Counted from the first letter of the stretch, positions 3,614 through 19,124 are shown. The stretch is 27,066 bases of DNA from an uncultured Bacteroidales bacterium (GCA_946187365.1 CAMHRD010000001.1:1-27066); one strand, 5' to 3'. Notes: generated from the letters alone by a model not told the origin. Numbers and translations: made by a program.

Positions 3614-4834
3614 TTACTCTGCCCGCTTTACGTTTGTATAAGCGGTAACTATTGTTTTATCTAACAGAGAGTTGAACTCCTTTACTTTCTCCTCTGTAAG
3701 TTTACCCTTACGGAGAGCTTTTACCACAGGTTCAGAATCTTTAAGTATCTCCTCCTGGTAAGGATATAACTGCTGGCTATATCCCGTTCCCTCAGGATTA
3801 TAGAGAAGTGAGAAGTGGAAATATTTATTTCCGTTTCCTCTCTTTATTGGGAAGATATCTTTCTTAAGAGAGAGCACCTGGTCACAGGCATAGCAGTAAT
3901 TTTTCTTCTCTCCGCTGCCCTTTAAAAGTGAGAAAGGAATCTGTGAAGGATAGGCCATAAATACCGGAACCATAAGGGCTAACGGGCCATAACCTATACC
4001 GCACCAGAAGATGGTATTAGAACCATTTTCTCCCTTTTTAACTCCCTGGAAAATTGAGATGGCGGAGGTGGATTTTCTTGGAATGAAATCCTGGTCCATA
4101 AACCAACCGTTTGTCTGCTGAGCAATATTGCTCTCCCTCAGATCTGCCTTAAGGAGAGAGTGATAGAAGGAGCGTGAGAGTTTATCCATTATCCATTCAG
4201 GAGTAAATTTAACTCCCTCTGCGTATGCTTTATCTATTACATCAGTAGCGTTGCCGAATCTTACATATCCCATTCCCTTATCCTCTTCTCCGCTGCGGGA
4301 ATAGTTGGTTGTAATGAGGTATCCGTTAGGTGCAACTGCAGGATCATTGGCATCAAACTTTTTCCAGGTTCTGGTATTTACCTCATAGTAAGCTGCTCCT
4401 CCCTCTGCATCTATTACTCCGAAGTTTGCCTCTACTGCAAGAGGTTTTCTTATTGTATCCAACAGATTTTCAAAGTCTTGTATGGTTCTGCAAATTGAGA
4501 GTGCAAGGTACATTACCTCTCCCTCAGAATCCTGCAGATCTTTCTCTTCCGGAATTGCAAGATTGTATGAAGCGGTATTCATTATGCAGAATCCAACCTC
4601 GTTACTTCCGGCCCAGGCATCTCCTCCTCTCTTTGGAGAATTTACCAGAGCAACAAATCCATATATTCTTCCCTGGAAAAATTCAAGGCGGTTATTGAGT
4701 TCTCCGGTGTCTCTGTTTTTCCACATCAGAGGTCTTCCGTCTTTTGTACATTTACCCGTGAAAATTGCTGATGTACAAGCAAATATATCTACAGATAGTA
4801 ACGTAATAAGAAGAAGTGTAAATATCTTTTTCAT
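3614..4834 (-). CDS. Exported Ntn-hydrolase, peptidase C45 / isopenicillin-N acyltransferase-like
   Basis: Signal peptide followed directly by 'CTSAIFTG...DGRPLMWKNRD', then 'NEVGFCIMN' and 'NFGVIDAEGGAAYYE', typical of the Bacteroidales C45-like family. Confidence 0.8.
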   Translation of the reverse strand: MKKIFTLLLITLLSVDIFACTSAIFTGKCTKDGRPLMWKNRDTGELNNRLEFFQGRIYGFVALVNSPKRGGDAWAGSNEVGFCIMNTASYNLAIPEEKDLQDSEGEVMYLALSICRTIQDFENLLDTIRKPLAVEANFGVIDAEGGAAYYEVNTRTWKKFDANDPAVAPNGYLITTNYSRSGEEDKGMGYVRFGNATDVIDKAYAEGVKFTPEWIMDKLSRSFYHSLLKADLRESNIAQQTNGWFMDQDFIPRKSTSAISIFQGVKKGENGSNTIFWCGIGYGPLALMVPVFMAYPSQIPFSLLKGSGEKKNYCYACDQVLSLKKDIFPIKRGNGNKYFHFSLLYNPEGTGYSQQLYPYQEEILKDSEPVVKALRKGKLTEEKVKEFNSLLDKTIVTAYTNVKRAE

Positions 4835-4854
4835 GGTAATAGAATTAATTGTCT

Positions 4855-5892
4855 TTAAAACAGAGAGTAATCTTTATATGGAGATATTCCCAAATGTTTA
4901 TAGGAGATCTCCGTTACCTCTCTTCCTCTTGGAGTTCTTCTCAAAAATCCCTCCTGAATAAGGAATGGTTCATAAACCTCTTCAATAGTTCCGGCATCTT
5001 CACCAACTGCAGTTGCAATGGTTGTAAGTCCAACCGGTCCTCCTTTAAATTTATGAATGATGGTGGAGAGTATTTTATTATCCATCATATCCAATCCTCT
5101 CTTATCTATATTGAGCGCATCAAGAGAATATCTTGTAATCTCCAGATTTATATCTCCGTTACCCTTTACCTGCGCAAAATCTCTAACTCTTCTCAAAAGT
5201 GAGTTGGCAATTCTTGGGGTTCCGCGGCTGCGGCAGGCAATCTCCTTAGATGCCTGGTCATCTATATCTATATCTAAAATCTTTGCAGAACGTTTTACTA
5301 TATTTTGCAGAGTTTCTGTGTTATAATACTCTAAGTGACAGTTAATTCCAAAACGTGCACGGAGCGGTGAGGAGAGAAGTCCGCTGCGGGTTGTGGCTCC
5401 CACAAGAGTGAAAGGATTAAGGGTTATCTGCACAGAGCGGGCACCGGGGCCTTTATCTATCATAATATCTATGCGGAAATCCTCCATCGCGGAGTAAAGA
5501 TATTCCTCCACAATTTTAGGCAGGCGGTGAATCTCATCAATAAAGAGCACGTCTCCCGCCTCAAGTGAGGTTAAAAGGCCGGCCAGATCTCCGGGTTTGT
5601 CCAAAATAGGGCCGGAGGTCACCTTCATATCCACTCCCAGTTCATTGGAGATAATATTGGCCAAAGTGGTCTTTCCTAAACCGGGAGGGCCAAAGAGCAG
5701 GGTATGGTCCAAAGACTCTCCCCTCATCTTTGCAGCCTTCACAAAGACCTTGAGGTTCTCTACAACCTTATCCTGGCCTGCAAAATCACTGAATTCCTGG
5801 GGACGGACCAGCTTTTCCATCTCTCTGTCCGATGTGGATTCTATCTCTCTCGGATTGAAATTCTCTATATTTGTGTTCTCCTCTGAAATCAT
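4855..5892 (-). CDS. ruvB: Holliday junction branch migration helicase RuvB
   Basis: '[12 protein letters not shown]', Walker A 'GPPGLGKTT', Walker B 'VLFIDEIH', 'GATTR', 'RGTPRIAN', C-terminal 'GPVGL...[17 protein letters not shown]'. Confidence 0.98.
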
Positions 5893-5899
5893 AGCAAGA

Positions 5900-5907
5900 C
5901 AAAGATA
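5900..5907 (-). promoter_or_regulatory. Bacteroidota -7 promoter element (TATCTTTG) for ruvB
   Basis: Minus-strand TAnnTTTG match 7 nt upstream of the ruvB ATG. Confidence 0.7.
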
Positions 5908-5920
5908 CTTTTTTAACCGC

Positions 5921-5957
5921 TTAAAATATAATTACTATATAAATTAAAATATAAAAA
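5921..5957. repeat. AT-rich DNA-unwinding-element-like tract containing direct repeat TTAAAATATAA x2
   Basis: 36 of 37 bases are A/T. Identical 11-mers at 5921-5931 and 5944-5954. Confidence 0.75.
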
Positions 5958-5973
5958 GTAGTTGTAGTAATAC
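5956..5973 (+). repeat. DnaA-trio-like array (5'-AAG TAG TTG TAG TAA TAC-3')
   Basis: Period-3 TAG-like repeats (3'-GAT-5') between the AT-rich tract and the tandem DnaA boxes. Confidence 0.7.
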
Positions 5974-5975
5974 TC

Positions 5976-5993
5976 TGTGGAAAGTGTTGATAA
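5976..5993 (-). promoter_or_regulatory. Tandem DnaA boxes (TTATCAACA and CTTTCCACA on the minus strand)
   Basis: Two abutting 9-mers, each one mismatch from TTWTNCACA, pointing toward the trio array. Confidence 0.75.
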
Positions 5994-6046
5994 CCCAAAA
6001 AATCCTATTCAAAATCACTTTTAAGGCATATTTCTTTTAAACCGAG

Positions 6047-6157
6047 TGTTGAAAACCTATAGATAAACCTGTTGGAAAAAAGGAGGTTTTTCCACAGAAA
6101 AAGTTATCCCCTCTTTTTTACAAAGTTATTAACATAGATAATAACAATTTATCTACC
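6047..6157. promoter_or_regulatory. Distal DnaA-box cluster
   Basis: Minus-oriented TTTTCAACA (6047-6055), TTATCTATA (6058-6066), TTTTCCAAC (6071-6079). Plus-oriented TTTTCCACA (6088-6096, exact match), TTATCCCCT (6104-6112), TTTTTTACA (6114-6122), TTATTAACA (6126-6134), TTATCTACC (6149-6157). Confidence 0.65.
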
Positions 6158-6161
6158 TTTG
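6154..6161 (+). promoter_or_regulatory. Bacteroidota -7 promoter element (TACCTTTG) for mfd
   Basis: TAnnTTTG match 10 nt upstream of the mfd ATG. Confidence 0.7.
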
Positions 6162-6171
6162 CGCCACATAT

Positions 6172-9100
6172 ATGAGCAGGATAGAAGGGATAGCCGGCAA
6201 GTTTGACTCCTTGGAAGTGGTGAAAAGATTATCCTCCTTTATAGAGGGCTCTAAAAAGGGTGACTCTGTAGTTATAAAGGGACTTTTCGGATCTTCCAAA
6301 GCTTTTCTATTGTCTTCTGCCGTCAAAAATAGCAGCTACGGCAAGATTCATATAGTGGTGGAGGATACCAAAGAGGCGGCAGAATATATGTGCGCAGATC
6401 TCTATGAGATATTTAACGGAGAGGTCTATTACTTCCCCCTCTCCTCCTCTTCCCAGGCCAGAAAAATCTCCATAAAAGACTCATCTAACAAAGTACAGAG
6501 AAGCATCACCCTCAGCGCTTTGAACAACTTCTCCAGTGAGAGTAATTCTATCGCGATAGTTACATATCCCGATGCGGTAAAGGAGAAAATAATGGCGCAG
6601 CGCGCTGTATTGGAGGGAATACTGAAAATATCTGTGGGTGAGGAGATTGAGTTTGACTCAATAAAGGAAAAACTTACCGCTGCAGGGTTTGAAAGGGTAG
6701 ATTTTGTATCAGAGCCGGGAGAGTTTGCAATAAGGGGAGGTATAGTAGATATCTTCTCATATTCAGACAATGTTCCTTACAGAATAGATTTCTTTGGAAA
6801 CAGTGTAGATAGCATAAGAAAGTTCTCACTGGATACTCAGCGTTCTAAAGAGGAGGTAAAAAGTGTGGAGATATTTCCGAACGTTTGCGGAGAGGATAAG
6901 GTGATGGCTTACGGCGGAGATACTCTCTTTAATTATGCCTCTAAATATTCCGTTGTAATTTGGAACAACACATACGAGCAGTTGGGTGAGATGTATGATA
7001 CTCATCCTTGTATATCTCTGAACGGCAGGAGTATAAAAGATAGCGCAGATGAAGAGGTACTTGAGATGAACTGCTCTCCGCAGCCAAGTTTTAACCGCAA
7101 CTTTGAACTTCTGGCAGATGATATAAGAGCACGTAAAAAGCAAGGATATCAGGTATTTATAAGTTCCTCTTCTGCAGAGCAGATTGAGAGAATAAGAAAC
7201 ATATTCAAAGATTCCGCTCATATATCAGAGGGAGAACATCCTACCTTTGAGGCGCTGGAAAGTTCTATTAACGAGGGCTTTATAAGTGCAGATGTAAAAC
7301 TGTGTCTTTATACTGACCATCAAATTTTTGAGCGTTATCACAGAGTGAAGGTAAGACGTGAGGTGGAGAGAAGCGAGCGTCTTACGCTTGAAGATCTGAG
7401 TGCTTTTCACGTTGGAGATTATGTGGTTCATATAGACCACGGAGTAGGTGTCTTTGGAGGGTTGGTAAAGACAGAGGTAAACGGAAAACATCAGGAGGCT
7501 ATTAAGATAATTTACAAAGACGGTGATGTAATTTTTGTCTCCGTTGGAGGACTTCATAAAATATCAAAATATAAGAGCAAAGACGGGGAGCCTCCTAAGA
7601 TTTACAAACTTGGAAGCGGTGCCTGGAACAAGCTGAAAACCACCACTAAAGCCAAGATTAAAGATATTGCAAAAGAGCTTATTGAACTCTATGCAAAACG
7701 TAAGGGAACAAAGGGCTTTGCCTTCTCTCAAGACTCCTATCTTCAGAACGAACTTGAGGCATCGTTTATGTTTGACGATACGCCGGACCAGGTAAAAGCA
7801 ACCAAGGCCGTTAAGGCAGATATGGAGAGTGAGAATCCTATGGACCGTCTTATATGCGGAGATGTGGGATTCGGAAAGACGGAGGTTGCAATACGTGCGG
7901 CGTTCAAAGCGGTGTGTGACGGAAAGCAGGTTTGCGTTCTGGTACCTACCACAATTCTTGCACTGCAGCACTATAAAACCTTTACGGAAAGACTGGCGGA
8001 GTTTCCTTGTAAGATAGATTATATCAGCCGCTTACGCAGTGCCAAAGATATACGTTTAATAACGGAAGATGTAAAGACTGGAAAGACTGATATTATAATT
8101 GGAACGCACCGTCTTTTGAATAAAAACATCACCTTCAAAGATCTTGGACTTTTAATAATTGATGAGGAGCAGAAGTTTGGTGTTGCCGCAAAAGAGAGGC
8201 TGCGTCAGTTAAAAGTTGAGGTAGATACTTTAACTCTTACCGCCACTCCTATTCCTCGTACTCTGCAGTTCTCACTGCTTGGTGCAAGAGACCTCTCCAT
8301 TATAAATACTCCTCCGCCAAACAGACTGCCTGTGGAGACGGAAGTTATTGATTTTAACGAGGATTACATAAAGGAGGCAATAGAGAGTGAGATAAAGAGA
8401 GGCGGGCAGGTCTTCTTTGTTCACAACAGAGTTGAAGACATTCTTGCGGTGGAGCAGATGATTAACCGCATCTGTCCAAAGGCAAAGACAATTGTGGGGC
8501 ACGGCAAGATGGAACCTTCTGTGCTTGAGAACAGAATTCTAGATTTTATTAGGGGAGATTATGACGTGCTTATCTCCACTACAATCATAGAGAACGGTAT
8601 AGATATACCTAACGCCAACACTATGATTATCAACCAGGCACAGATGTTCGGCCTGAGTGATCTGCATCAGTTAAGGGGTAGGGTTGGACGCAGCAATCGC
8701 AGAGCATACTGCTATCTGATTGTTCCGCCAATGTCCTCCATTACAGAAGATGCAAAGAGAAGGATAAAGGCAATTGAGGCCTTCTCTGAACTGGGCAGCG
8801 GATTCAATATTGCAATGCAGGATTTGGATATAAGAGGTGCCGGCAATATGTTGGGAGGAGAGCAGAGCGGCTTCATTGCAGATATGGGATTTGAGACCTA
8901 CCAAAAGATTCTCAATGAGGCATTTATAGAGATTAACGCCCAGCGGGCAGACTTTGTAAATCCAATGCAGAACACCACTCAGTTTGTATCTGACTGCACC
9001 GTTGAGACAGACCTGGAAATCTTTATTCCGGATGAATATATACCTCAGCCAACGGAGAAGATTAAACTCTATAAAGATTTGGATGCGGTTAAGGAAGAAA

Positions 9101-9441
9101 GTGATATTGAGCCGTTTATAGAGTCTTTGAAAGACCGCTTTGGTACTCCGCCGGCCCAGGTTATGGAGCTTGCAAATGTTGTTAAACTGAGACTGAGAGC
9201 AGTAAAGATTGGTGTGGAGAGAATAATTCTTAAGTCTGACATTATGCGTCTATACTTTGTATCTGACGCCAATTCAGCCTTTTACAGAACGGAGTTGTAC
9301 CAGAAGGTGATGGGCAGGATTGCAACTTTAAGGGGAGCAAAACTTAACTACAAACCTCAGGAGAAGAAACTGACGCTTACCGTTCCGGGAGTGAAAAGTG
9401 TAACTGCCGCATACGGCATAATATGCTCTTTAGGGGCTTGA
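6172..9441 (+). CDS. mfd: Transcription-repair coupling factor Mfd
   Basis: UvrB-like 'GFERVDFVSEPGEFAIRGGIVDIF', RID 'VGDYVVHIDHGVG', 'DRLICGDVGFGKTE', 'DEEQKFG', 'TLTATPIPRTL', 'QLRGRVGRS', TRG 'DLDIRGAG', C-terminal TRCF domain. Confidence 0.97.
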   Translation: MSRIEGIAGKFDSLEVVKRLSSFIEGSKKGDSVVIKGLFGSSKAFLLSSAVKNSSYGKIHIVVEDTKEAAEYMCADLYEIFNGEVYYFPLSSSSQARKISIKDSSNKVQRSITLSALNNFSSESNSIAIVTYPDAVKEKIMAQRAVLEGILKISVGEEIEFDSIKEKLTAAGFERVDFVSEPGEFAIRGGIVDIFSYSDNVPYRIDFFGNSVDSIRKFSLDTQRSKEEVKSVEIFPNVCGEDKVMAYGGDTLFNYASKYSVVIWNNTYEQLGEMYDTHPCISLNGRSIKDSADEEVLEMNCSPQPSFNRNFELLADDIRARKKQGYQVFISSSSAEQIERIRNIFKDSAHISEGEHPTFEALESSINEGFISADVKLCLYTDHQIFERYHRVKVRREVERSERLTLEDLSAFHVGDYVVHIDHGVGVFGGLVKTEVNGKHQEAIKIIYKDGDVIFVSVGGLHKISKYKSKDGEPPKIYKLGSGAWNKLKTTTKAKIKDIAKELIELYAKRKGTKGFAFSQDSYLQNELEASFMFDDTPDQVKATKAVKADMESENPMDRLICGDVGFGKTEVAIRAAFKAVCDGKQVCVLVPTTILALQHYKTFTERLAEFPCKIDYISRLRSAKDIRLITEDVKTGKTDIIIGTHRLLNKNITFKDLGLLIIDEEQKFGVAAKERLRQLKVEVDTLTLTATPIPRTLQFSLLGARDLSIINTPPPNRLPVETEVIDFNEDYIKEAIESEIKRGGQVFFVHNRVEDILAVEQMINRICPKAKTIVGHGKMEPSVLENRILDFIRGDYDVLISTTIIENGIDIPNANTMIINQAQMFGLSDLHQLRGRVGRSNRRAYCYLIVPPMSSITEDAKRRIKAIEAFSELGSGFNIAMQDLDIRGAGNMLGGEQSGFIADMGFETYQKILNEAFIEINAQRADFVNPMQNTTQFVSDCTVETDLEIFIPDEYIPQPTEKIKLYKDLDAVKEESDIEPFIESLKDRFGTPPAQVMELANVVKLRLRAVKIGVERIILKSDIMRLYFVSDANSAFYRTELYQKVMGRIATLRGAKLNYKPQEKKLTLTVPGVKSVTAAYGIICSLGA

Positions 9442-9465: not shown

Positions 9466-9473
9466 TATATTTG
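9466..9473 (+). promoter_or_regulatory. -7 promoter element (TATATTTG) for the coaX operon
   Basis: TAnnTTTG match 8 nt upstream of the coaX ATG. Confidence 0.6.
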
Positions 9474-9481
9474 GACTTTAT

Positions 9482-10213
9482 ATGGAAACAAACCTTTTAG
9501 TAGATATAGGTAATACCAACGCCAAGGTTGTATTTTACTACAACGGTACAATGGGGCGCCTGCACCGTTCCTCAGAGAGGGATGCTGTGGCCTTCATTAA
9601 AAGCGTTATAGAATCTACAAGGTATGAGGTAAATACAATAGTTGTAAGCAACGTAAGAACCTCCAACGAGCCCGTTAAGGCTGCGCTGGAACCGCTTTGC
9701 AAGAAGCTGATACTATTGGATTACAGAACTCCTCTGCCTATAGATCTGGGTTACGGGTTTGATGCAACGGAACTGGGTGCAGACCGTATTGCGGCAGCTC
9801 TGGCAGTGGCCTATATGTTTAAGGGTCAGGACTGTATAAAGTTTGACTTTGGAACCGCCCTTACGGTAGATTTTATAGACAAAGAAGGGCACTATCTGGG
9901 AGGCAATATCTCCCTTGGAATGCGAAGCCGTTTCAGAGCGTTGAACGAGTTTACAGGACTGCTTCCATACATCACTCCGGATGCGGAGTTCCCGCCTGTG
10001 GGAGTTACCACCACCGGTGCAATGAGCGCAGGGGTTGTATTCGGTCTGATATTTGAAGTGGAGGGATATATTAAGAGATACCCTCAGCATACCATAATTT
10101 TTACGGGAGGTGATTCCTTCTATTTTGCACACAGGATTAAGCACACTGTTTTTGCAACACAGGATATGGTACTGCAGGGATTGGCAATTATAGCAGATTT
10201 TTATGCAAAATAA
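9482..10213 (+). CDS. coaX: Type III pantothenate kinase
   Basis: 'LLVDIGNTNAK', 'LGADR', 'DFGTALTVD', 'GGNISLG', 'IFTGGD', 'LQGL'. Confidence 0.93.
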   Translation: METNLLVDIGNTNAKVVFYYNGTMGRLHRSSERDAVAFIKSVIESTRYEVNTIVVSNVRTSNEPVKAALEPLCKKLILLDYRTPLPIDLGYGFDATELGADRIAAALAVAYMFKGQDCIKFDFGTALTVDFIDKEGHYLGGNISLGMRSRFRALNEFTGLLPYITPDAEFPPVGVTTTGAMSAGVVFGLIFEVEGYIKRYPQHTIIFTGGDSFYFAHRIKHTVFATQDMVLQGLAIIADFYAK

Positions 10214-10214
10214 A

Positions 10215-11504
10215 ATGAGAGCAAAGAGATTGATATTATTGGCGTCTGCCTTTTTATTGGGAGTAACCCGCATGGCGGCACAGGAAGTTGATGCACTTGG
10301 AACCTTTACTCCATACTCCATTTACGGAGTGGGAGATCTCTACAACAACAACTCCGCCATCAACCTGGGTATGGGTGGTATTGGAATGGGAATCAGAGAC
10401 TCAAGATTCATAAACTATAAGAACATAGCCTCTTTAACCCAGAGAGACACTCTCTCCTTTATGTTGGATATGGGAGTGATGGGAAGGAATATGTACCTTA
10501 AGGACAAAAACACCACATCTGCCTATAACACAGGCAATATCAATAACTTCACCTTCTCTTTCCCAATTAAGAACAAGGCCTCTTTCATCTTTGGAATAAT
10601 GCCTTACTCCAGCGTAGGTTATAAGTTCAAGAGCGTGGAGGATGATGTAAACCTCATTAACAAATATGGTTACATCACCTATTACAAATACGGTAACGGA
10701 AACATCAACCAACTCTTCTTTGGAGGAGCAATGAATGTTATTAAGAACGTTTCCGTAGGAGCCTCTGCCGTTTACTACTTTGGAAGCCTTACAAACCACA
10801 GCAACATTGCCTTTACAAATTCAGATATAAGAACCATAGAGACAGGCTGGAAGCATAAGCCTCACGGCTGGGCTGCAGAGTTTGCGGCTCAGGCTTCATT
10901 CCCAATGCCAATGGAAAACACCACCCTTACGGTGGGTGCAACCTACAGAATGAAGAGCACGCTCTACGGTTCACAGAGCAGATATGCCTACGCATACGAC
11001 GGCTCAATACGAGATACCATCTCAGACAATCCAATCAAAGAGCATATAAAGATTCCGGGAAAGATTACCGCCGGTGTGGCACTCTCAAAACTGGACAAGT
11101 GGACAATAGGTTTGGATTATGAGCGCCAGGATTGGTCAAAGACAAACTTCAAAAATACTCCGGGTGTAGGATTTGACTCACAGACAGCCTCTTCCATTAA
11201 GATAGGAGGTGAATATACCCCTAACAGATTTGATATCCGTTACTTCTACAAGAGAGTCTCTTACCGTGCCGGCTTCCACTATGACAAGACATACGTACGT
11301 TTGGATGGTAAGAGTATAAACCAGATGGGATTTACAATTGGTGCATCACTGCCAATCTACCGTCTTAACAACTCAATCAACGTTGCCGTAGACTTTGGTC
11401 AAAGAGGCTCCAAAACAGGCAATTTGGTAAGAGAAAATTACATTAATTTCATTGTGAGCTTAAGTTTGCACGATATTTGGTTTGTAAAACCTAAGTTCCA
11501 ATAA
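10215..11504 (+). CDS. FadL/PorV-like outer-membrane beta-barrel, possible BamG-type BAM accessory subunit
   Basis: Signal peptide. N-terminal hatch motif 'TPYSIYGVGDL...GMGGIG', 'GIMPYSSVGY', alternating beta-strands, C-terminal 'WFVKPKF'. Alternative start at 10203. BamG assignment rests on recalled synteny and similarity and needs a search. Confidence 0.75.
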   Translation: MRAKRLILLASAFLLGVTRMAAQEVDALGTFTPYSIYGVGDLYNNNSAINLGMGGIGMGIRDSRFINYKNIASLTQRDTLSFMLDMGVMGRNMYLKDKNTTSAYNTGNINNFTFSFPIKNKASFIFGIMPYSSVGYKFKSVEDDVNLINKYGYITYYKYGNGNINQLFFGGAMNVIKNVSVGASAVYYFGSLTNHSNIAFTNSDIRTIETGWKHKPHGWAAEFAAQASFPMPMENTTLTVGATYRMKSTLYGSQSRYAYAYDGSIRDTISDNPIKEHIKIPGKITAGVALSKLDKWTIGLDYERQDWSKTNFKNTPGVGFDSQTASSIKIGGEYTPNRFDIRYFYKRVSYRAGFHYDKTYVRLDGKSINQMGFTIGASLPIYRLNNSINVAVDFGQRGSKTGNLVRENYINFIVSLSLHDIWFVKPKFQ

Positions 11505-18257: not shown

Positions 18258-18265
18258 TATATTTG
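18258..18265 (+). promoter_or_regulatory. -7 promoter element (TATATTTG) for the EEP nuclease gene
   Basis: TAnnTTTG match 4 nt upstream of the ATG. Confidence 0.55.
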
Positions 18266-18269
18266 GAGC

Positions 18270-19124
18270 ATGAAGAACTTAAAGGAATATCTCTTACTGC
18301 TGCTTATGTTCTGGAACCTGGAGAACTTTTACCTAGATTCCCGCCGCTTTGTAAGCAAAAGAGACCTCATTGTTAAAACCGTTATGGCGGTAAAGGACAG
18401 AGAGGGGGAGTTTCCCGCCCTCATTGGGCTCTGTGAAACGGACAGTTATCTTGCTACCCGCATGCTGGTTAACAACACTCCGCTGGAGCGGTTAGGCTAT
18501 AAGATTATCCACAAAGATTCTCCGGATAAAAGAGGGATAGATGTGGCGCTTTTGTATCGCGATGAATTTTTTAACCTGCTGAGTGCCCGCTTTTTAAGGG
18601 TGACCTCTTTTAAAACCAGAGATATTCTGTATGCAAAAGGAACGGTTGGAGTTGATACCCTGCATATCTTTGTAAACCACTGGCCCTCAAAGCTTGGGGG
18701 AGAGAAGAGCTCCTCTTCAAAGAGGATGGAGGTAGCTGCTCTTTTAAAGAGCGTTACAGATTCCATAAAGAGTACAAACCTTTCAGCCTTAATAATCGCG
18801 ATGGGGGATTTTAATGACGCTCCCTCTTCAGAGGCGGTAAAAAGCCTGGAGCTCAATAACCTGTCGGGAAAACTGAAAGACTCTTTAAATGCCTCTCATT
18901 CAGAGATAAAGGGCTCTCATAAATTCAGAGGCAGGTGGGAAATGCTGGATCAATTTTTAGTGAGTGACTCCGTAAGGGGCTCTGCCTCCCTCTTTTATAT
19001 GCCGCACCTTCTGACGGAGGATAAAAAGTATTACGGTGTTAAGACCAGAAGAACTTTTGTTGGGCCCCGCTTTATTGGGGGTGCAAGTGACCACCTGCCA
19101 ATTTTGTTACGAATAAAATTGTAA
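18270..19124 (+). CDS. Endonuclease/exonuclease/phosphatase (EEP, DNase I-like) family protein
   Basis: 'WNLENF', 'GLCE', '[11 protein letters not shown]', 'VNHWPS', 'MGDFND', 'LDQFLVS', 'SDHLPI'. Confidence 0.9.

Follow-up and report, generated by a model that had tools for sequence, protein, structure and literature searches.

The 279-bp gap between the divergent genes ruvB and mfd is probably the chromosomal origin of a rumen Bacteroidales bacterium, with positions 5921 to 5993 forming its unwinding end and opening in the manner of Bacillus subtilis. The more general part of this reading, that the gap is oriC, holds very probably. The window analyzed is one entire 27-kb contig (27,066 nucleotides) of a metagenome-assembled genome (MAG) that is 74% complete and divided among 231 contigs. 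The best match to its RuvB in public genomes is "Bacteroidales bacterium isolate RGIG7951" from buffalo rumen, which bears out the assignment to Bacteroidales in the original prediction. The sequence elements described below, their statistical rarity, their conservation, and the origin-compatible position of the gap in relatives were all established directly.

On this reading, the origin of an uncultured genus of rumen Bacteroidales lies at the ruvB-mfd gap, unlinked to dnaA, a placement that helps both peak-to-trough growth-rate estimates and the genome orientation of these MAGs. The box-pair/trio/A/T-tract layout is a clean instance, but of an expected type: since it has already been predicted for 85% of more than 2,000 species, Bacteroidetes included, the general picture is unchanged. 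What is new are the specifics, namely, the ruvB-mfd origin site in an uncultured rumen genus, an invariant period-3 T, and substitutions in the DnaA pocket. A more useful lead comes from a mismatch, in that the DNA module is B. subtilis-like but the DnaA lacks the trio-reading residues of that species, taken together with the invariant period-3 T in close relatives. The module could therefore be used to probe the generality of "nucleobase capture."

Layout and rarity of the putative unwinding module

The gap (positions 5893 to 6171) is bordered by ruvB on the minus strand (4855 to 5892; 345 amino acids; Pfam domains RuvB_N, AAA_lid_4, and RuvB_C) and by mfd, encoding the transcription-repair coupling factor, on the plus strand (6172 to 9441; 1089 amino acids; Pfam domains UvrB_inter, CarD_TRCF_RID, DEAD, Helicase_C, and TRCF). 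It contains eight DnaA-box-like 9-mers within 182 bp, four in minus orientation (5976, 5985, 6047, and 6058) and four in plus orientation (6088, 6104, 6126, and 6149). The first two minus-oriented boxes abut. The distal one, TTATCAACA (plus strand TGTTGATAA; 5985 to 5993), has one mismatch to TTATCCACA and is the commonest box form across the origins of the genus; the proximal one, CTTTCCACA (plus strand TGTGGAAAG; 5976 to 5984), has two mismatches and is kept in relatives.

A 2-nt spacer, TC (5974 to 5975), leads from the box pair to six 3-nt units resembling DnaA-trios of the 3'-GAT-5' type (5956 to 5973). These lie on the plus strand, which carries 5'-TGTGG..., and singly are AAG (5956 to 5958), TAG (5959 to 5961), TTG (5962 to 5964), TAG (5965 to 5967), TAA (5968 to 5970), and TAC (5971 to 5973). 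Beyond them lies an A/T tract (5921 to 5955), the candidate duplex-unwinding element, which holds the 11-nt direct repeat TTAAAATATAA at 5921 to 5931 and 5944 to 5954. On the other side of the box pair, a 53-bp box-free interval is followed by two further minus-oriented box-like sites (6047 to 6066), TTTTCAACA at 6047 to 6055 and TTATCTATA at 6058 to 6066. Four plus-oriented sites, TTTTCCACA (6088), TTATCCCCT (6104), TTATTAACA (6126), and TTATCTACC (6149), occupy 6088 to 6157 and are predicted to form an opposed DnaA-assembly array. The succession of A/T tract, six units, spacer, and two abutting co-oriented boxes is as claimed in the original prediction, the spacer being 2 nt. The triplet grouping proposed there was correct on the plus strand, whereas its minus-strand version (GAG TAT TAC...) was one base out of register. 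The repeat reported within the A/T run was found at 5921 and 5944.

The two copies of TTAAAATATAA are the only ones in the window, where 0.03 would be expected. The repeat is real in the window, but it was rejected as a functional element because the second copy is absent in the closest relative. A single-stranded DNA (ssDNA) hairpin was looked for in the A/T tract (5921 to 5955), and none was found. A structured RNA or ssDNA hairpin was likewise set aside, there being no Rfam match above noise and a fold no better than that of shuffled sequences.

The co-oriented tandem pair at 5976 to 5993 is the sole one in the 1.3-Mb MAG when both strands are scanned for boxes at an offset of 8 to 10 with summed mismatches of at most 3. 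The five proximal 3-nt units score 13/15 against TAR, a value reached by 0.9% of local 36-nt shuffles (P = 0.009), and five-unit matches to TAR of at least 13/15 have a background frequency of 2.2e-5 per position in the MAG. No other 50-nt window of the contig is as A/T-rich as positions 5921 to 5970 (90%); even 88% is reached by just 7.7e-5 of genome windows. In box density, the gap ranks 1st among 62,055 280-bp windows of the MAG (score 11; mean 1.19, standard deviation 1.18). The tandem pair, the rare run of trio-like units, and the contig's A/T-richest stretch are mutually adjacent, and this arrangement exceeds chance.

Conservation in the genus and comparison with known systems

The closest relative, G102, is 91% identical over 901 nt. 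Its boxes, spacer, and four proximal units are identical to those of the window; the fifth and sixth units differ, the second copy of TTAAAATATAA has not been kept, and the flanking A/T DNA is altered. The downstream box blocks (6047 to 6066 and 6088 to 6157) are kept as well, and the 53-bp box-free interval has diverged. That interval (5994 to 6046) is the least conserved part of the gap in this comparison; it may serve for bending or spacing, its length being more important than its sequence. In other relatives, the plus-oriented box array recurs as AAGTTATCAACA.

The box pair and the A/T tract are present in all 22 genus sequences examined. Canonical TAR units exceed shuffles in 4/22 (the window, G102, L003, and L004) and do not in the remaining 18/22. 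Of the conservation looked for in relatives, the box pair therefore stood in every same-genus sequence, but the canonical central-A trios were confined to the window, G102, and two others.

In the seven closest genomes, whose DnaA is at least 74% identical, T occupies each of the columns at -5, -8, -11, -14, and -17 from the box, and every column between them varies. In the window, these first-position Ts are at 5971, 5968, 5965, 5962, and 5959. The spacer C adjoining the box (C5975) is also invariant in these seven genomes. Five invariant columns of 15 fall entirely in one phase in 3/3003 arrangements. The shared phase of the five T columns therefore indicates a five-unit period-3 element under constraint. 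The constrained base is the T of 3'-NNT-5' and not the central A, which is degenerate even among the seven closest genomes. In B. subtilis, the most important trio base is the central A.

The other 15 genomes share the motif TTG TTG TTT ATT TAT. Two origin designs are found in this one genus (5976 to 5993 versus L008 to L025): abutting boxes at offset 9 with a 2-nt spacer and, in those 15 genomes, overlapping boxes at offset 8 with a spacer of 3 to 4 nt. In both, the period-3 or T-rich element lies about 11 to 12 nt from the distal box.

Work on the basal unwinding system (BUS) of B. subtilis oriC (incC) is reportedly that of Richardson (2016, 2019) and Pelliciari (2021, 2023). The BUS was defined in B. 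subtilis (PMC6669920), where the string reads 3'-AATAGGTGT TTAGGTGT CCGG GAT GAT AAT GAA GAT GAT AAAAAATAT-5' (PMC8287927, supplementary table). Written the same way, the window is 3'-AATAGTTGT GAAAGGTGT CT CAT AAT GAT GTT GAT GAA AAATAT...-5'. The original prediction had proposed a close resemblance between the two sequences. A global alignment bore this out, with 36 of 43 aligned columns identical and one 5-nt gap, and 0/2000 shuffles scored as well. The 5-nt gap corresponds to one unit less and two spacer bases less in the window than in B. subtilis.

The two modules are alike in element order, strand, and orientation, and in both the distal box is the one nearer consensus. The first trio lies 11 nt from the distal box here and 12 nt from it in B. 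subtilis, and both modules have 5'-TAG/TAA-3' (3'-GAT-5') units followed by an A-rich tract. The claimed match to the B. subtilis layout was thus upheld, with strand, orientation, and the 11-nt distance as in the published BUS geometry (PMC8287927, PMC6669920). There are also differences. The boxes abut here (offset 9), whereas those of B. subtilis share one base (offset 8); the spacer here, TC, has 2 nt and is only half G/C, compared with 4 nt (GGCC; 3'-CCGG) there; and both boxes here deviate from consensus, with 3/6 units fully canonical. The candidate origin lies between ruvB and mfd, whereas that of B. subtilis lies between dnaA and dnaN. The putative helicase operator here is DciA, where B. 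subtilis has DnaD/DnaB/DnaI.

A survey predicted a BUS in 1755/2070 species (85%), six of which were tested in vitro (PMC8287927). Its search called for three or more DnaA-trios (3'-NAN-5', preferred 3'-GAT-5') no farther than 16 bp from a box, on the strand with 5'-TGTGGATAA, and the distance from the best box to the trios peaked at 10 to 13 nt (PMC8287927). Ori-Finder 2022 likewise marks DnaA-trios as a matter of routine. In the window, the tandem boxes are co-oriented, and the upstream one (TTATCAACA) is nearer consensus than CTTTCCACA. The distal box and the first trio are 11 nt apart, and the units are on the expected strand. Read 3' to 5', they are CAT AAT GAT (GTT) GAT GAA, which gives three consecutive NAN units and 5/6 overall. 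The DNA beyond the trios is 90% A/T, and an A/T tract is found in all relatives examined.

According to the original prediction, so clear a module would support conservation of the trio mechanism in this phylum. Such support would not be new, since BUS predictions for Prevotella, Porphyromonas, Bacteroides, and Tannerella were included in the 2021 survey. The tabulated Bacteroidetes predictions are those for Prevotella ruminicola 23, Porphyromonas gingivalis W83, Bacteroides helcogenes, Tannerella forsythia, and Salinibacter ruber (PMC8287927). A search of the main texts of papers for DnaA-trio and Bacteroidetes together gave no match; the data sit in the supplementary table of PMC8287927. In the BUS literature examined, no species of this phylum is among those tested experimentally. 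The tabulated cases share phylum and order with the present one, and in both a box or box pair, a short spacer, and NAN units are predicted. The entry for Prevotella ruminicola is built very similarly (3'-AATAGTTCT ATAAGTGC CGTA TAG TAT GAT GAA TAA GAT...). Unlike the present lineage, which is a rumen lineage represented by MAGs only, those predictions come from closed genomes and DoriC origins; here, the origin was placed by box density, conservation, and the GC skew of relatives.

DnaA and the proposed mode of opening

The DnaA of this organism (469 amino acids) is encoded on contig C64 of the MAG (G000) at 4444 to 5850 (locus L001:1108-2517). It aligns ungapped through the initiator-specific motif with the B. 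subtilis DnaA of the BUS cryo-EM structure 8BTG (E = 2.6e-91). In the B. subtilis protein, the central adenine is bonded by Asn187 and Glu183 and the guanine by Arg202 and Glu228; the third base sits between Ile190 and Ile193, and Lys222 and Glu223 contact the backbone (PMC10721633). Inspection of these positions, a check proposed along with the original prediction, revealed that the ssDNA- and trio-contacting residues of B. subtilis are not kept. Asn187 is replaced by Thr and Glu183 by Asn; Arg202 by Leu and Glu228 by Val; Ile190 (E. coli Val211) by Gln (Q212) and Ile193 by Ala; and Lys222, beside a 1-amino-acid deletion in the loop, and Glu223 by Ser. The E. coli H/B residues are not kept either (V211 is Q212, and R245 is G).

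The I190A substitution abolishes ssDNA binding in B. subtilis, and alanine at that residue does so in model species. None of the ssDNA- and trio-contacting residues is universally conserved (PMC10721633). In a 30-genome sample of the phylum, most genomes retain Glu183 and Lys222, and the Ile190 position is V or I in 24/30. In the genus, residue 187 is generally Thr, residue 202 Leu, and residue 228 Ala or Val. Within it, only the seven-genome subclade with abutting boxes and a 2-nt spacer has Gln at 190; M, I, or V occupies this position in the other members. As the trio-contacting residues are replaced, base-specific 3'-GA-5' capture cannot be inferred by homology. Judged from the sequence, the residue loss lowers confidence in base-specific capture and not in oligomer loading, and this DnaA may still bind ssDNA. 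It is possible, if doubtful, that the BUS geometry has been kept while the ssDNA read-out has shifted, with the initiator pocket (Asn187 to Thr genus-wide, Ile190 to Gln in the seven-genome subclade) co-varying with the origin motif (the invariant T).

From the analogy with B. subtilis, we infer DnaA binding, oligomer loading on the 3-nt units, a melting site, and helicase loading. DnaA-ATP would bind the better distal box (5985 to 5993) and the weaker proximal box (5976 to 5984), and the two bound protomers would nucleate a head-to-tail AAA+ oligomer. This oligomer would run off the boxes onto the plus strand over five or six period-3 units (5956 to 5973). By holding and stretching that strand, it would allow the adjoining 90% A/T tract (5921 to 5955) to melt. 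The replicative helicase would then be loaded with DciA, which is encoded in this genome, as the operator. The remaining boxes (6047 to 6157, in two opposed arrays) may serve to increase the DnaA concentration locally and to complete the orisome; in the 2019 opening model of Richardson for B. subtilis, the distal subregion raises the local DnaA concentration (PMC6669920). Alternatively, the opposed arrays might form Left- and Right-type subcomplexes as in E. coli (PMC10325909).

The competing explanation that survives best also takes the gap to be oriC but replaces base-specific trio capture with a looser ssDNA read-out or with mere use of the very A/T-rich tract. We consider it unlikely. The read-out could then be an E. 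coli-type ssDUE recruitment of TT[G/A]T(T), with HU bending the 53-bp box-free gap, and the near-canonical TAG/TAA units would be a lineage-specific accident in a T-rich period-3 element. In its favor, central-A trios are unconserved beyond the nearest relatives, and this DnaA has other residues at the positions with which B. subtilis DnaA reads G and A. The motif shared by the other members of the genus is rich in TTGT/TTAT on the same strand. At the E. coli oriC DUE (R1 box, TT[G/A]T(T) ssDUE motifs), T-containing motifs likewise lie on the 5'-TGTGGATAA strand, 5' of the first box (PMC10325909; E. coli row of the BUS table). Both origins also have DnaA-box arrays in two opposed sets, with a stretch free of boxes following the first box or boxes, an arrangement that recalls the Left and Right DnaA-oligomerization regions of E. 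coli.

The module in the window differs from that of E. coli in lacking 13-mer repeats and GATC sites and in having units that abut the boxes, those of E. coli being about 10 nt or more away. That the equivalents of V211 and R245 are Q and G argues against an E. coli-type read-out, as does IHF, which is not expected in this phylum (PMC10325909). Further points against the looser read-out are that the units adjoin the box pair at the BUS distance, that the 3-nt register is strict in seven genomes, and that the window's own units fit the trio consensus at the P value given above. We favor B. subtilis-like opening over it.

Placement of the origin

In about 20 same-genus genomes, every contig that extended far enough showed the divergent ruvB-mfd arrangement with an intervening box cluster. 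Four relatives have long contigs, and in each of them no box cluster in a stretch of 220 to 400 kb ranks above that of the gap. The fragmentation of the MAG (231 contigs, 74% complete) makes its own GC skew unreadable and means that an origin on unassembled DNA is possible, so same-genus relatives were used for skew. The cumulative GC-skew minimum was at 237.2 kb in G004 (contig C8; gap at 232.2 kb), at 309.6 kb in G110 (C5; gap at 314.3 kb), and at 150 kb in G102 (C6; gap at 128.5 kb); in G014 (C15), it was a plateau at 353 to 425 kb, with the gap at 383.4 kb. The gap is 5 to 22 kb from the minimum in these four relatives, the skew being weak and the minima broad. Strand-corrected and GC3 break-point fits in the relatives fell 22 to 45 kb from the gap, on a side that varied with the method. 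Because the skew estimates are broad and method dependent, they support a zone containing the gap rather than a precise site.

An origin adjoining dnaA was ruled out, as no box cluster was found around dnaA either on contig C64 of the MAG or in 30 genomes of the genus. Box scores in those 30 genomes were 3 to 7 at the dnaA flanks versus 6 to 20 at the ruvB-mfd gaps, and dnaA lies on contigs other than those with the gap. The rival box-dense windows of the MAG (on C4, C138, C26, and C51) are every one inside long open reading frames (ORFs). No competing intergenic box cluster was found in the MAG or in the 220 to 400 kb of the four relatives.

Predicted promoter motifs are found at both edges of the gap. 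A -7 motif of the Bacteroidetes type, TAnnTTTG (TATCTTTG; 5900 to 5907, minus strand), lies 7 nt upstream of the ruvB ATG, and another (TACCTTTG; 6154 to 6161, plus strand) lies 10 nt upstream of the mfd ATG. The ruvB-side motif is present in relatives as CAAAGATAC or CACAAATATAA (plus strand), and the mfd-side motif is kept too. TAnnTTTG is known as a promoter motif of Bacteroidetes, and here the promoters are predicted. Transcription is therefore predicted to leave the origin both ways. A sigma-70 promoter scan gave weak matches of 9/12 at best and was set aside because this phylum uses other promoters.

These motifs bear on a second alternative, quite improbable in our view, in which the gap is not an origin but a DnaA-controlled divergent promoter for ruvB and mfd or a datA- or DARS-like titrating or reactivating locus, the A/T tract being promoter-upstream DNA. 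With a -7 motif at the ruvB edge, the A/T tract does overlap the ruvB upstream region. GC skew locates the origin only to within tens of kilobases, and other Bacteroidales families have ruvB without a box cluster. Against this stand the rank of the cluster as the strongest in the MAG and in 220 to 400 kb of four relatives, the lack of a competing intergenic cluster there and of any cluster at the dnaA flanks, and the distance of 5 to 22 kb from the skew minimum. Moreover, neither titration nor repression would call for period-3 units and an A/T tract placed beside a tandem pair as in the BUS.

It is very unlikely that the trio-like units arose by chance in low-complexity A/T-rich intergenic DNA beside real DnaA boxes. 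In favor of chance, the published criterion (three NAN units, no farther than 16 bp from a box) is a loose one that 85% of predicted origins satisfy, and most relatives fail to beat shuffles; the background frequency and shuffle P value reported above, the period-3 T invariant in seven diverged genomes, and the identity of four proximal units in G102 amid changed flanking A/T DNA all speak against it.

Boxes upstream of ruvB were absent in the three other Bacteroidales families sampled. In Marinilabiliales, box clusters, several with exact TTATCAACA, occur in A/T-rich intergenic DNA a few hundred base pairs upstream of ruvB, without mfd. The loci concerned, of which the first 1500 nt were used, are from Marinifilum breve (L173), two Prolixibacteraceae MAGs (L152 and L172), and a Mangrovibacterium MAG (L158). 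An origin near ruvB may predate this genus and extend beyond it.

Two features of the window outside the gap were also noted. Two long ORFs have no Pfam match at E ≤ 0.001, one at 3614 to 4834 on the minus strand (406 amino acids) and one at 10203 to 11504 on the plus strand (433 amino acids). The TAnnTTTG motif is enriched in the window as a whole, with 37 matches versus 22.9 expected, a count reached by 0/100 shuffles. It lies just upstream of several starts, for example, at 9466 to 9473 before the pantothenate kinase gene at 9482 and at 18258 to 18265 before the ORF at 18270.
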